The notes beneath the pieces were generated by a model, which saw only the letters and a program-made list of their open reading frames with translations, was not told where the DNA came from and did no database searches. Of a stretch of DNA of 64,000 nt, positions 8,360 to 36,261 are shown in pieces; within the stretch, counting starts at the first letter, position 1, and each line of letters begins with the position of its first letter. Position numbers and translations under genes: made by a program. This DNA is from Escherichia phage Ec_YwIITB1: sequence record PQ356294.1, one strand, 5' to 3'.

Positions 8360-8923
8360 TTATTTATCTAGTTTAGTTATTATAGCTTCTGCAGCAGCTT
8401 TTAGCTTAGATGCGGTGTTAATACGATTTTTAATTTCAGTATACGCGTCGCCAAGAACATCAAGGCTATCAGAATAAACACTTACACTATTGCGTTCGCT
8501 ATTTGAAATAGAACCTTTAGTTTTGCGGTCAAAATCGGTGTACACGTCTTGAAGATCGCGGGCTGCCTTCTTTGCATCATCCAATGCATCAAGAGCTTTA
8601 TTCAAAGCATTAACGTATTTTTTAGTGTCGAACATATTCTTAGAAATTTTAACAGGTGCGCGTTCAGGAGTAGCTAACACAGATTTAGGAACCTGAGCAC
8701 CAGATGCCAATTTCTTGGAAATTTTGAAAAATGCTTTATTGAATTTATTTTCTTGACTCATTGTAAAAGAACTATTATCGATGTTGTACATTTCAATAGC
8801 TTTAGCTTTCCACTTAAGAAAATCGCCGCGGTCTTTTGGGTCCAAGTGGAAGAATACTTTAGTAAGATCTGCTTCAGATGGTAATTTTGCTGCTTCGGTT
8901 AAAAATTCGGCATAGGTTTTCAT
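8360..8923 (-). CDS. internal head protein-like (capsid-targeting-sequence family)
   Basis: N-terminus MKTYAEFLTEAA matches the T4 internal-protein targeting sequence; 187 aa. Confidence 0.65.
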   Translation of the reverse strand: MKTYAEFLTEAAKLPSEADLTKVFFHLDPKDRGDFLKWKAKAIEMYNIDNSSFTMSQENKFNKAFFKISKKLASGAQVPKSVLATPERAPVKISKNMFDTKKYVNALNKALDALDDAKKAARDLQDVYTDFDRKTKGSISNSERNSVSVYSDSLDVLGDAYTEIKNRINTASKLKAAAEAIITKLDK

Positions 8924-9011: not shown

Positions 9012-9041
9012 CTAAAAAGCCCCAACCTTTTGGTCAGGGCT
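9012..9041 (-). terminator. intrinsic terminator hairpin
   Basis: agccccaacc-tttt-ggtcagggct hairpin followed on the minus strand by TTTTT, after the stop of gene 9049..9522. Confidence 0.55.
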
Positions 9042-9048
9042 AAGAATG

Positions 9049-9522
9049 TTATTTGATTTGTTTAGCAGACCAAATGCGGTCTTTAATAATTTTTTGGATG
9101 TCTTCAACATACTCAAGAGAGTGAACATGTGGATTATCTTTGAAACTATAAGCACGGGCTAGCTTTTGGCCTTCGGTTTTGATTACTAAAAGCTCTTTAA
9201 GGATAGCTTCATATTTAGAGATAATTCCTTTAACGATATTTTTTTCTTGTGCAGCTTTAGGATCTGCTTTAGGAGCAGGTTTACCCGAAGCCTTTGCAAA
9301 AGCAGCGCCAGTAGCAACTAAACTTTTCCAGGCCATACTAACTGCATTTCCAGTAAATCCTTCTGCTTTCATGTCGCGAGCAAATTGGAATCGTGATTCG
9401 TCAGAAGCATCTTTATAGGAATATTTACCCGCTGCAATGGCTGCTTTTGCGACAGCTTGAATTTCGGTGCTAGATGCTTCATTTAACACCGCTTCATTTA
9501 AAAATTGAGCATATGATTTCAT
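9049..9522 (-). CDS. internal head protein-like (capsid-targeting-sequence family)
   Basis: N-terminus MKSYAQFLNEAV; AGGAAA RBS; 157 aa. Confidence 0.6.
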   Translation of the reverse strand: MKSYAQFLNEAVLNEASSTEIQAVAKAAIAAGKYSYKDASDESRFQFARDMKAEGFTGNAVSMAWKSLVATGAAFAKASGKPAPKADPKAAQEKNIVKGIISKYEAILKELLVIKTEGQKLARAYSFKDNPHVHSLEYVEDIQKIIKDRIWSAKQIK

Positions 9523-9562
9523 CTTATTTCCTGTTTTAATTCGTGGATTTAATATACTACTG

Positions 9563-9570
9563 TATTTATA
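9563..9570 (-). promoter_or_regulatory. late promoter
   Basis: Minus strand TATAAATA about 40 nt upstream of the ATG at 9522. Confidence 0.5.
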
Positions 9571-9600
9571 CTAAAAAGCCCCAACCTTTCGGTCGGGGCT
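9571..9600 (-). terminator. intrinsic terminator hairpin downstream of the tRNA region
   Basis: agccccaacc-tttc-ggtcggggct hairpin followed on the minus strand by TTTTT; near-copy of the hairpin at 9012..9041. Confidence 0.55.
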
Positions 9601-9916
9601 AAGCCTTGCGGCAACCTTGTCGGGGTTCCACCTGCTAAGGCAAGTGTTTGTACGAAACGCCGGGATTTGAACCCGGTTATTAAGCAGTTGACGCTACTCA
9701 ATATTTTTAAAAGGCCATATCTCAACCATATCCGAACGTTCCGTCAAAAACGCTACTCGGCTTACAGCAAAAATATTTCCTCGAATCGATAATTCTGTGC
9801 GCCGTTTCAGCTGTGATGTAAGGGGACATTAACAGATCGTAAAGATTTGTTAATGCCAGTCCTTACCCAGGGAACATCAGTCCGACGACTTACCGGTAGC
9901 GACCCGGTTTCTTGTT

Positions 9917-9992
9917 TGGTCGAGGCAGTAGGGATCGAACCTACGACCTAGGACTTAGAAGGTCCTTGCTCTTCCTTCTGAGCTATGCCTCG
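9917..9992 (-). tRNA. tRNA-Arg (anticodon UCU)
   Basis: Manual cloverleaf: acceptor CGAGGCA/TGCCTCG, D stem GCTC/GAGC, anticodon loop CTTCTAA, T arm GTAGG-TTCGATC-CCTAC, encoded CCA. Confidence 0.85.
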
Positions 9993-10161
9993 AACCCATG
10001 ACTACGAGAATCACAATCTCGAGTTCTACCAACTGAACTACGGCCACATTAATACCTACTCCAACAATCAAGATGTCTTCACACGAAATTAAGAGAAGAG
10101 TGATCAGTTCAACCCCTATAATCGCGTCAAGTAGATATTAATGTGACAGTTGTCACAAATT
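9993..10161 (-). ncRNA. tRNA-like structured RNA (candidate counterpart of T4 stable RNA species 1/2)
   Basis: The 53 nt next to tRNA-Arg fold as acceptor strand GTGGCCG, D arm GTTC/GAAC, perfect anticodon arm CGAGA-TTGTGAT-TCTCG (GUG) and T-stem 5' strand, then run directly into tRNA-Arg with no T-stem 3' strand or acceptor 3' strand; hairpin tgtgaca/tgtcaca at 10141..10160. Confidence 0.4.
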
Positions 10162-11966: not shown

Positions 11967-12224
11967 TTATTTTAAATCTTCTAATCGTTTCTTCATCTTA
12001 GAACCATTTTTAGCAATTTCTCCTGCATCGGAGCATAACGCTAAAAGTGCTTTAACTTTAGTTTGGTCTCCTTTAAAAGATGAAGGATTGACCGCAGCAG
12101 CAAGTTCTTTAATACGAGAGAAAAGACGCTCAGCTTCAGCTAAAGCCATTCCAAGCTTTACTTCCATACCGTGGGAAGATTCAGTGATAGTAGTTTTTGT
12201 AGCAAACTCTTTGAAAGTTTTCAT
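11967..12224 (-). CDS. internal protein I-like small capsid-targeted protein
   Basis: 85 aa, N-terminus MKTFKEFATK...TE resembles the internal-protein targeting sequence; sits where ipI sits in T4 (between tRNAs and 57B). Confidence 0.55.
   Translation of the reverse strand: MKTFKEFATKTTITESSHGMEVKLGMALAEAERLFSRIKELAAAVNPSSFKGDQTKVKALLALCSDAGEIAKNGSKMKKRLEDLK

Positions 12225-33123: not shown

Positions 33124-36261
<3,138 letters not shown>

Follow-up and report, generated by a model that had tools for sequence, protein, structure and literature searches.

What is encoded at positions 9601-9916 of the window (the whole stretch analyzed here, 64,000 nt of Escherichia phage Ec_YwIITB1, PQ356294.1), where a tRNA-like T arm lies downstream of a tRNA-Arg gene and no cloverleaf could be completed around it? 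An earlier note, made from the sequence alone, had proposed a stable small RNA or a degenerate tRNA. The first half of this proposal stood, as the interval holds the stable-RNA genes rnaD and rnaC, which are annotated in related phages, but the second half, a decaying pseudogene, did not. The interpretation was essentially right, although it had not recognized that two RNAs are present, that both are named genes, and that the partner of the acceptor-like strand lies upstream.

Two Known Small RNA Genes at the 3′ End of the tRNA Operon

A 401-nt query (9530-9930) was compared with 50,697 phage records by BLASTN. Matches to this region were found in 801 phage records, almost all from Tequatrovirus and close relatives, and the curated records of RB33, RB6, and T4 carry rnaC, rnaD, and tRNA-Arg under the match. 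Both rnaC and rnaD are annotated as ncRNAs in the GenBank records of RB33, RB6, RB10, and T4; the RB33 record places the ncRNAs rnaD ("species II RNA") and rnaC directly after tRNA-Arg, and the record of T4 strain 147 describes rnaC as "small, stable RNA; species 1 RNA". The annotations of RB33 and T4 were transferred to window coordinates by a three-way alignment, and the ends given below are those of the relatives' GenBank annotation. The locus then reads as follows:

9917-9992, minus strand: tRNA-Arg(UCU), called by ARAGORN and by the Rfam tRNA model (68.1 bits)
9795-9915, minus strand: rnaD, homologue of T4 species 2 RNA, 121 nt (RB33 ncRNA annotation mapped via the alignment)
9790-9794, minus strand: A/U-rich spacer AAUUA between rnaD and rnaC, 5 nt (alignment)
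9651-9789, minus strand: rnaC, homologue of T4 species 1 RNA, 139 nt (RB33/T4 annotation mapped via the alignment)
9601-9650, minus strand: conserved 3′ trailer from rnaC to the terminator, 50 nt (identity to T4/RB33)
9571-9600, minus strand: intrinsic terminator closing the tRNA operon, with its stem at 9600-9577 and a T run after it (terminator scan)

The tRNA-Arg that the earlier note had named as the upstream border is present at 9917-9992 on the minus strand. It is the last canonical tRNA of the operon and encodes its CCA (9919-9917). The ARAGORN tRNA array to which it belongs runs on the minus strand from 10913 down to 9917; ten of the calls are confirmed by Rfam, the Tyr call being recovered only by the tRNA-Sec model and below threshold, and the tRNA-His call of the array had no Rfam match. 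A truncated tRNA-His adjoins the locus.

Gene order and strand are as in T4 and RB33. The rnaC gene of the window is an orthologue of T4 rnaC, on the same strand and in the same place between rnaD and the operon terminator, so that it is the last gene of the tRNA operon, transcribed from the same strand as the tRNAs. The rnaD gene is likewise an orthologue of T4 rnaD, at the same site 3′ of tRNA-Arg and with the same invariant ends. Judged from these sequence comparisons, a Tequatrovirus tRNA operon has its 3′ end in this interval, which encodes the rnaD and rnaC orthologues. Both are already known genes, and our finding is a re-discovery: rnaD (species 2) and rnaC (species 1) are small stable RNAs of T4 that have been known since the 1970s.

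The elements of the locus differ in their conservation. Identity of rnaC is 97.1% (135/139 positions) to T4 and to RB33, and that of the trailer is 98-100% to these two phages (98% to T4). The corresponding values are 85.1% (T4) and 89% (RB33) for rnaD, and 57% (T4) and 76% (RB33) for tRNA-Arg. By these identities, conservation within the locus is highest in rnaC and the trailer. Among all phage records, rnaC was matched in 746, of which 676 are at least 95% identical and 721 cover at least 80% of the query; rnaD was matched in 734 records, only 56 of them at 95% identity or more.

We also considered whether the interval encodes small proteins, as many records list a "hypothetical protein" under the match. 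As had been claimed before, the interval from tRNA-Arg to the terminator contains no ORF of 60 codons or more, and the longest overlapping ORFs have 58, 41, 35, and 34 aa. However, these ORFs are short, occur on both strands, and extend across the terminator, the variation tracks RNA pairing and not codon position, and the curated T4, RB33, RB6, and RB10 records annotate ncRNAs at this place. We therefore give a protein-coding role a negligible chance.

A Conserved tRNA-Like Fold of rnaC

Homologues of rnaC were gathered by BLAST with divergent queries and by fetching annotated regions, and further ones by pattern scans of IMG/VR and of metagenomes. The resulting 51 loci gave 34 distinct sequences from Tequatro-, Gapriver-, Karam-, Kanagawa-, Gelderland-, Winkler-, Moon-, Kagamiyama-, and Marfavirus. 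The structural model derived from them has the following elements in the window:

9782-9788, minus strand: P1 5′ strand CGAUUCG of an acceptor-like stem, pairing with 9653-9659
9736-9753, minus strand: H1, tip of the long arm, stem GCGUUU/GAACGU and loop UUGACG at 9747-9742 (covariation, RNAalifold)
9678-9703, minus strand: H2, in the position of the anticodon arm, 10-bp stem and loop CGUCAA at 9693-9688 (covariation)
9660-9676, minus strand: T arm CCGGG-UUCAAAU-CCCGG (T-loop pattern, covariation)
9653-9659, minus strand: P1 3′ strand CGUUUCG of the acceptor-like stem, directly after the T stem

According to this model, rnaC folds into a four-way junction like that of a tRNA, with an extended arm where the D arm would be. 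The earlier note had suggested structure prediction with covariation across related phages, and this comparison revealed a conserved fold: compensatory changes on both sides were found in 26 of the 52 rnaC pairs among the 34 sequences. With the 34 distinct homologues, 93.7% of the cells are paired, compared with 36-47% in a control in which the partners were slid by 1-3 columns. None of 500 shuffles matched the observed pairing, the covariation score, or the number of pairs changed on both sides. An earlier rnaC alignment of 25 sequences had given the same covariation picture, and RNAalifold, blind to the model, recovered P1, the AGG/CCU pairing, H1, H2, and the T arm. The single rnaC sequence of the window has an MFE of −44.7 kcal/mol (z = −3.3).

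The T arm noticed previously (CCGGG-TTCAAAT-CCCGG) was confirmed at 9660-9676 on the minus strand. Its loop pattern, GGTTCRANNCC, has 11 matches in the 64-kb window, where 0.4 are expected; of these, nine fall inside called tRNAs and one is the rnaC T arm. The middle pair of the T stem is G-C in 16 sequences and U-A in another 16. The acceptor-like 3′ strand that had been described next to it is CGUUUCG (9659-9653), which pairs with CGAUUCG (9788-9782), and the cloverleaf could not be closed locally because this 5′ acceptor strand sits 130 nt upstream. The consensus of P1 is 5′ CGRUUCG with 3′ CGUUYCG, that is, five Watson-Crick pairs kept in 34/34 sequences and two central U·U oppositions. 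Four of the five are invariant; the remaining one, the third pair, reads A-U in the 15 T4-type sequences and G-C in all 19 others. P1 and the T arm hold in all 34 sequences, although the T loop is non-canonical in two lineages, reading UGCAUGC in the CIP9-type and UGCAUCC in LC53.

The long arm, of about 66 nt, is closed by AGG/CCU and ends in H1, whose stem shows compensatory changes in four of its six pairs and has 95% of its cells paired. An A/U-rich linker precedes H2, and the T arm starts a single nucleotide after it. Nine of the ten pairs of the H2 stem are compensatory, and the stem sequence of PG7 is entirely different. At the 3′ end, UACAA comes directly after P1, its first two nucleotides (UA) lying at 9652-9651; a CCA is not encoded. 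The window differs from T4 rnaC by four substitutions, none of which disturbs the structure: in three of them a wobble pair takes the place of a Watson-Crick pair, and the fourth lies at R57 of the T loop.

A different acceptor pairing, ACGGAAC/GUUUCGU, resembles that of tRNA-Lys and underlies an annotation in G29 and an ARAGORN call. It leaves 88.7% of the cells paired, shows no compensatory change, and scores below shuffles, and the changes that occur break its pairs (G·U to A·C in 17 sequences); P1 was thus preferred. The linker CUUUUAA, considered as a mimic of the tRNA-Lys anticodon loop, was also rejected, as it is unconserved and reads CUCUUAA, CUUUGAA, CUUACAA, or CUUAUAA in other genera. 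When run on rnaC relatives, ARAGORN gave sporadic and conflicting calls, such as Lys(ttt) in one and Phe(gaa) in another.

Comparison with the canonical tRNA (RF00005) shows how far the likeness goes. As in a tRNA, the seven-position acceptor-like stem of rnaC is continuous with a 5-bp T stem carrying a UUCRAAU loop, four helices meet at the junction, and the gene is placed inside tRNA arrays with tRNA-like spacers; in the window, the acceptor stem is coaxial with a T arm whose loop fits UUCRANY. Unlike a tRNA, rnaC has neither a D arm, which is replaced by the 66-nt arm, nor a 7-nt anticodon loop, as its third arm is a 10-bp stem with a 6-nt loop that pairs with the long arm; its acceptor stem contains two U·U oppositions and it encodes no CCA. 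Neither ARAGORN nor the Rfam tRNA model called a tRNA in 9601-9916.

These features could also be those of a decaying tRNA pseudogene, a functionless relic T arm left by a rearrangement of the tRNA cluster. A T arm and an acceptor-like strand without a D arm or a 7-nt anticodon loop, the silence of ARAGORN and of the Rfam tRNA model on rnaC in the window, and the truncated tRNA-His nearby are what a relic might leave. However, the high identity of the homologues (at least 95% in the 676 of 746 records mentioned above), the compensatory substitutions at 26 helix positions across at least nine genera, and the structure-neutrality of all four differences between the window and T4 rnaC make such decay very improbable.

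An acceptor/T-arm module joined to a non-tRNA module is also found in tmRNA and in the YrlA/Y RNA-like RNAs (RF02553), whose tRNA-like domains give access to tRNA-recognizing enzymes. In contrast to these RNAs, rnaC contains neither a tag ORF nor a Ro-binding helix. The tmRNA and YrlA models of Rfam matched neither rnaC nor rnaD (E up to 10), nor four divergent homologues (E up to 0.1), and ARAGORN found no tmRNA.

The Loops of H1 and H2 Are Complementary

The H1 loop is the exact complement of the H2 loop, with six of six loop-loop pairs in all 34 sequences. The loop pair is UUGACG/CGUCAA in 28 of them and UUGGCG/CGCCAA in the six Marfavirus-type sequences, a double change from A-U to G-C. 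The 6-nt loop duplex would contribute about −5.5 kcal/mol, or −7.6 kcal/mol in its Marfavirus form, and the secondary structure in which both loops are open, and thus compatible with kissing, lies only 0.2 kcal/mol above the MFE. These results indicate that the two loops form an intramolecular kissing interaction locking the two non-tRNA arms together, for which the comparative evidence is good but not conclusive. The loop covariation is a single event in a single clade, and a G·U intermediate could have been tolerated. It is also possible that the loop-loop contact is intermolecular and joins two rnaC molecules in a dimer.

The same region contains the direct repeat GAGTAGCGT that the earlier note had pointed out; it was located at 9691-9699 and 9750-9758 on the minus strand, two copies against 0.23 expected in the window. 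The repeat is real in T4-type and CIP9-type sequences. Its copies lie in different structural contexts, one overlapping the H1 stem and the other the H2 stem-plus-loop, and they are not kept in the Karam-, Winkler-, Gelderland-, or Marfavirus homologues, so that a functional repeat was rejected. It is partly explained by the complementarity of the H1 and H2 loops, and in part reflects the CGU common to the H1 stem and the H2 loop.

Distribution of rnaC

The rnaC gene was found in at least nine enterobacterial T4-like genera. RB69, which we take to be a Mosigvirus, has an rnaC match at 96.3% and is not among the 34 aligned sequences. In 185,579 bacterial and archaeal genomes, rnaC had no match; it is therefore regarded as phage-only, and a bacterial origin was rejected. 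The gapped pattern TTCGAGGA...GGCGTTYCGT was found at 113 loci in IMG/VR, and a scan of IMG/VR with a T-variant motif gave no matches. Among the distinct pattern matches, pooled with the loci collected before, 85 did not pass the T-arm filter; these were taken to be chance matches in unrelated G+C-rich contigs and were removed. In the Dhakavirus IME08, rnaC is cleanly lost and the trailer is retained, and rnaC is thus dispensable in at least one lineage.

No family of Rfam 15 matched rnaC or rnaD when the locus was searched with E up to 10, and no rnaC or rnaD family was found with four divergent homologues at E up to 0.1; the weak matches returned, isrK (16 bits) and anti-hemB (14 bits), are attributable to chance. 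In most deposited T4-like genomes, rnaC and rnaD either have no annotation or are hidden beneath spurious "hypothetical protein" CDSs or incorrect tRNA calls. Rfam models neither RNA. With a covariance model based on the alignment of 34 sequences, hundreds of annotations would be set right. The distribution also defines natural knock-outs, such as IME08, and variants for functional work.

Placement between tRNA Genes and Predicted Processing

The genes that flank rnaC differ from genus to genus:

Karamvirus (PS49, KMB20, Pet-CM3-4, PG7): tRNA-Trp upstream, tRNA-Gly downstream
Gelderlandvirus (Melville): tRNA-Trp upstream, tRNA-Gly downstream
Moonvirus (NM4.3): tRNA-Met upstream, tRNA-Gly downstream
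Winklervirus (LC53): tRNA-Phe upstream (record annotation), tRNA-Trp downstream
Kagamiyamavirus (EcS1): tRNA-Phe upstream (record annotation), tRNA-Trp downstream
Kanagawavirus (CIP9): tRNA-Met upstream
T4-type: rnaD upstream, trailer and terminator downstream

Where it is flanked by tRNAs, rnaC is separated from the upstream tRNA by 5-9 nt and from the downstream one by 5-11 nt. The flanking gaps of rnaC are normal inter-tRNA spacers, and the 5-nt spacer between rnaD and rnaC in the window is equivalent to the 5-9 nt that follow the tRNA in other genera. Since rnaC sits directly between tRNA genes in these genera, it is probably excised by the tRNA-processing enzymes. An acceptor stem stacked on a T arm suffices for recognition by RNase P, which leads us to infer an RNase P cut at P1.

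We propose that rnaD and rnaC are transcribed within the polycistronic tRNA precursor, from which the tRNA-processing machinery would release them. RNase P would cleave at the 5′ edge of the rnaC P1 stem, and the 3′ ends would be trimmed back to the stems; in T4-type phages, the same RNase P cut may generate the 3′ end of rnaD. The annotated 5-nt gap between rnaD and rnaC fits exonucleolytic trimming. However, the annotated 5′ end of rnaC (U-1) lies 1 nt upstream of the canonical RNase P cut at C1, which counts against this scheme. The M3 RNA of phage phi80, a small stable phage RNA of unknown function, is an RNase P substrate; rnaC is likewise a small stable phage RNA, and would be excised by RNase P in the scheme proposed here. 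Taken jointly, the identity of the RNAs of the interval, the rnaC fold, and the biogenesis proposed for them have, in our estimate, a probability of about 0.85.

This scheme is in agreement with work on T4, in which one transcript of about 1.75 kb was presumed to be the precursor of eight tRNAs and of the species I and II RNAs, and transcription of the tRNA cluster was presumed to terminate past the species I RNA gene (Brok-Volchanskaya et al., PMC2330249). T4-infected cells contain both RNAC and RNAD as discrete RNAs of the late class (Wolfram-Schauerte et al. 2022, PMC9697503), and a Northern assay with an RNAC probe validated the late class in T4 infection (PMC9697503).

Downstream of rnaC, the trailer contains the hairpin CACUUGC-CUUA-GCAGGUG (9646-9629), in which one compensatory change, from G-C to A-U, was observed at one locus (L140). 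The region 9565-9660, which comprises the trailer, the terminator, and their flanks, folds with z = −3.8. The terminator had been recognized correctly: its stem at 9600-9577 has 10 bp, seven of them G-C pairs, with a 4-nt loop and TTTTT downstream, as expected for an intrinsic terminator.

Possible Roles of rnaC

In the T4 literature of 2010, 2022, and 2025, rnaC and rnaD are given as RNAs of unknown function (PMC3014915, PMC9697503, PMC12685909), and according to the literature no trans-acting regulatory RNA from T4 has been functionally characterized.

A first possibility is that rnaC and rnaD act mainly in cis, in folding, processing, or 3′-protection of the tRNA precursor, the stable species being by-products. 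Both are always found inside tRNA arrays or appended to them, on the strand of the tRNAs; the trailer and terminator equal rnaC in conservation; and the trailer persists in IME08 despite the loss of rnaC. However, the loops and fold of rnaC are kept beside different tRNAs and sometimes after a CDS, as a position-specific role does not predict; rnaC is far more conserved than the neighboring tRNA-Arg that it would help to process; and RNAC and RNAD are discrete late RNAs in T4 infection (PMC9697503). A role mainly in cis thus appears rather unlikely.

The reading that we prefer, tentatively and as a speculation, is that rnaC may mimic a tRNA without decoding and act in trans, by occupying a tRNA-binding factor of the host or of the phage. 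The conservation of the fold and loops whatever the neighbors, the acceptor/T-arm module, and the restriction to phages are in favor of this possible role, whereas the non-canonical T loops of the CIP9-type and LC53, the lack of a CCA, and the loss of rnaC in IME08 speak against strict tRNA mimicry. A tRNA mimic might more specifically serve as a decoy or sponge for a tRNA-recognizing factor, its "anticodon" arm being masked by kissing with the extended "D" arm, which we regard as doubtful. A tRNA-targeting defense nuclease and a processing or modification enzyme are candidate targets of a decoy. If rnaC did act as a decoy, it would be a host-range determinant, and an orphan RNA known for 50 years would have its first function.

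Compared with what was already known of these RNAs, the comparative rnaC fold, the loop-loop complementarity with its one covariation event, and the placement between tRNA genes may be a modest addition. The acceptor/T-arm module, the two arms with complementary loops, and the inter-tRNA position of rnaC give concrete mutational tests.

Conserved Flanks and a Variable Hairpin in rnaD

The rnaD gene starts 1 nt after the CCA of tRNA-Arg. We found it in no phages other than Tequatrovirus-like ones, Gaprivervirus, and Dhakavirus; in the remaining phages, rnaC follows a tRNA or another element. Among 15 distinct variants, the first 50 nt and the last 25 nt do not vary at all; the central hairpin is hypervariable, with at least three unrelated versions among relatives. 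The identity to T4 is only 85% because this central hairpin differs. Single-sequence folding of rnaD gave z = −2.6, and rnaD contains no T arm. The RNAalifold consensus of the 15 variants includes compensatory changes in the variable stem, as well as a closing stem, GUCGUCG/CGGCG(C)AC, which is invariant; the latter has no covariation support because the flanks themselves do not vary. A further element of the consensus is:

9892-9908, minus strand: rnaD 5′ hairpin ACCGG-GUCGCUA-CCGGU, 5-bp stem and 7-nt loop

The combination of invariant flanks with a replaceable hairpin suggests, from the pattern of variation, that rnaD may be recognized in a sequence-specific manner by a protein or an RNA. 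A convergent SNP inside rnaD has been reported for every line of a T4-like phage that had been adapted to a semi-permissive E. coli host (2025, PMC12685909), which hints that the RNA pair matters for host-specific fitness.

These data bear on the idea that rnaC, rnaD, or both are sRNAs that base-pair with host or phage mRNAs through the rnaD flanks or the rnaC loops as seeds. The invariance of about 75 nt of rnaD in 15 variants while the central hairpin is replaced wholesale, and the convergent SNP in all the evolved lines (PMC12685909), would fit such a role. On the other hand, the conserved loops of rnaC complement each other and are thus argued to be occupied internally. Base-pairing sRNAs are therefore more plausible for rnaD, and we consider the idea as a whole unlikely.

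Intermolecular pairing between a loop of rnaD (CGCUAC) and rnaC (GUAGCG) was also considered and rejected, as a 6-mer match is expected by chance. With the full-length RNAs in duplexfold, 11 of 300 shuffles were as good. Finally, the basal pair of the rnaD 5′ hairpin changes from A-U to G-C in two of the 15 sequences, and the terminator scan picked up the same hairpin on the plus strand as a stem-loop.

Natural Loss of rnaC and Conservation of the Trailer

In Escherichia phage IME08 (Dhakavirus; homologous locus L125, 351-560), rnaD is followed by the trailer (AACACUUGCCUAGCAGGUGG...), which in our phage lies between rnaC and the terminator, and then by the terminator, with nothing between rnaD and the trailer. 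The rnaC gene is precisely missing from this locus, and IME08 is thus a natural rnaC knock-out. Since the trailer was kept there without rnaC, it is a unit in its own right. When the trailer of the window (9601-9650) was compared with those of IME08 and of two other homologous loci (L140 and L063), its first ~35 nt (AACACUUGCCUUAGCAGGUGGAACCCCGACAAGGU) were found to be almost invariant and the following ~15 nt variable or deleted. The trailer hairpin CACUUGC/GCAGGUG showed a single compensatory change, from G-C to A-U, in L140. The trailer may serve in processing or in stabilizing the 3' end.

The terminator cassette itself, of ~30 nt, was present in the window in two near-identical copies (ACTAAAAAGCCCCAACCTTT[T/C]GGTC[A/G]GGGCTAAG):

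9013-9045: terminator cassette, 3' of a 157-aa ORF (9049-9522)
9571-9603: terminator cassette, 3' of rnaC

This duplication accounts for the two-piece BLAST matches, over ~900 bp, observed in several relatives.

Annotation of the RNA Locus in Relatives

The rnaC/rnaD locus is systematically mis-annotated. ARAGORN reported aberrant tRNAs of 94-96 nt within rnaC, as did the GenBank record of phage G29, and "hypothetical protein" CDSs overlie rnaC and rnaD in many other records.

L007, 757-850: aberrant tRNA call within rnaC, phage G29
L143, 273-368: aberrant tRNA call within rnaC, Cronobacter phage Pet-CM3-4

The identity given was Lys(ttt) in one of these two phages and Phe(gaa) in the other; these calls contradict each other and have no covariation support.

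Next to tRNA-Arg, ARAGORN also called a tRNA-His(GTG), which shares 17 nt with tRNA-Arg; no tRNA match was obtained from Rfam at this position.

9976-10048, minus strand: tRNA-His(GTG) call, junction to tRNA-Arg near 9990-9993

Compared with phage G29, ~25 nt were gone, made up of the 3' T stem, acceptor strand, CCA, and spacer. Because the sequence breaks off after GGGUUCGA and is joined directly to the tRNA-Arg 5' end, this call is, as judged from the comparison, a truncated tRNA-His remnant.

Other Candidate Elements

Two further elements were located near rnaC in other genera:

L019, 334-400 (Klebsiella phage F48, Marfavirus), also in L025, L037, and L039: ~67-nt element in the tRNA-Met/rnaC interval, closing stem GGGGUGG...CCACCCC
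L003, 846-900, and L018, 543-600: CAAUUUAUGAUUUGUGUGGUGAAAUUUGGUAGACACGAC, downstream of rnaC, common to Kanagawavirus CIP9 and PEi26

The first occupies the same place as rnaD in T4-type phages, but its sequence is unrelated to rnaD, and it may be another small structured RNA. The second resembles a tRNA in its 5' portion; neither ARAGORN nor Rfam called a tRNA there.

Outside the tRNA region, the sole T-loop-like match in the 64-kb window was the following, which may be due to chance, since 0.4 matches were expected:

35347-35357, minus strand: GGTTCAAACCC

Finally, small ORFs bordering the tRNA/rnaC region had a common N-terminal motif (MKSYAQFLNEA, MKTYAEFLTEA, and MKTFKEFATK in the window; MKTYNEFLNES in IME08, from about 586 in L125), which suggests that the small proteins encoded around the RNA locus form a paralogous family:

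9049-9522, minus strand: small flanking ORF
8360-8923, minus strand: small flanking ORF
11967-12224, minus strand: small flanking ORF
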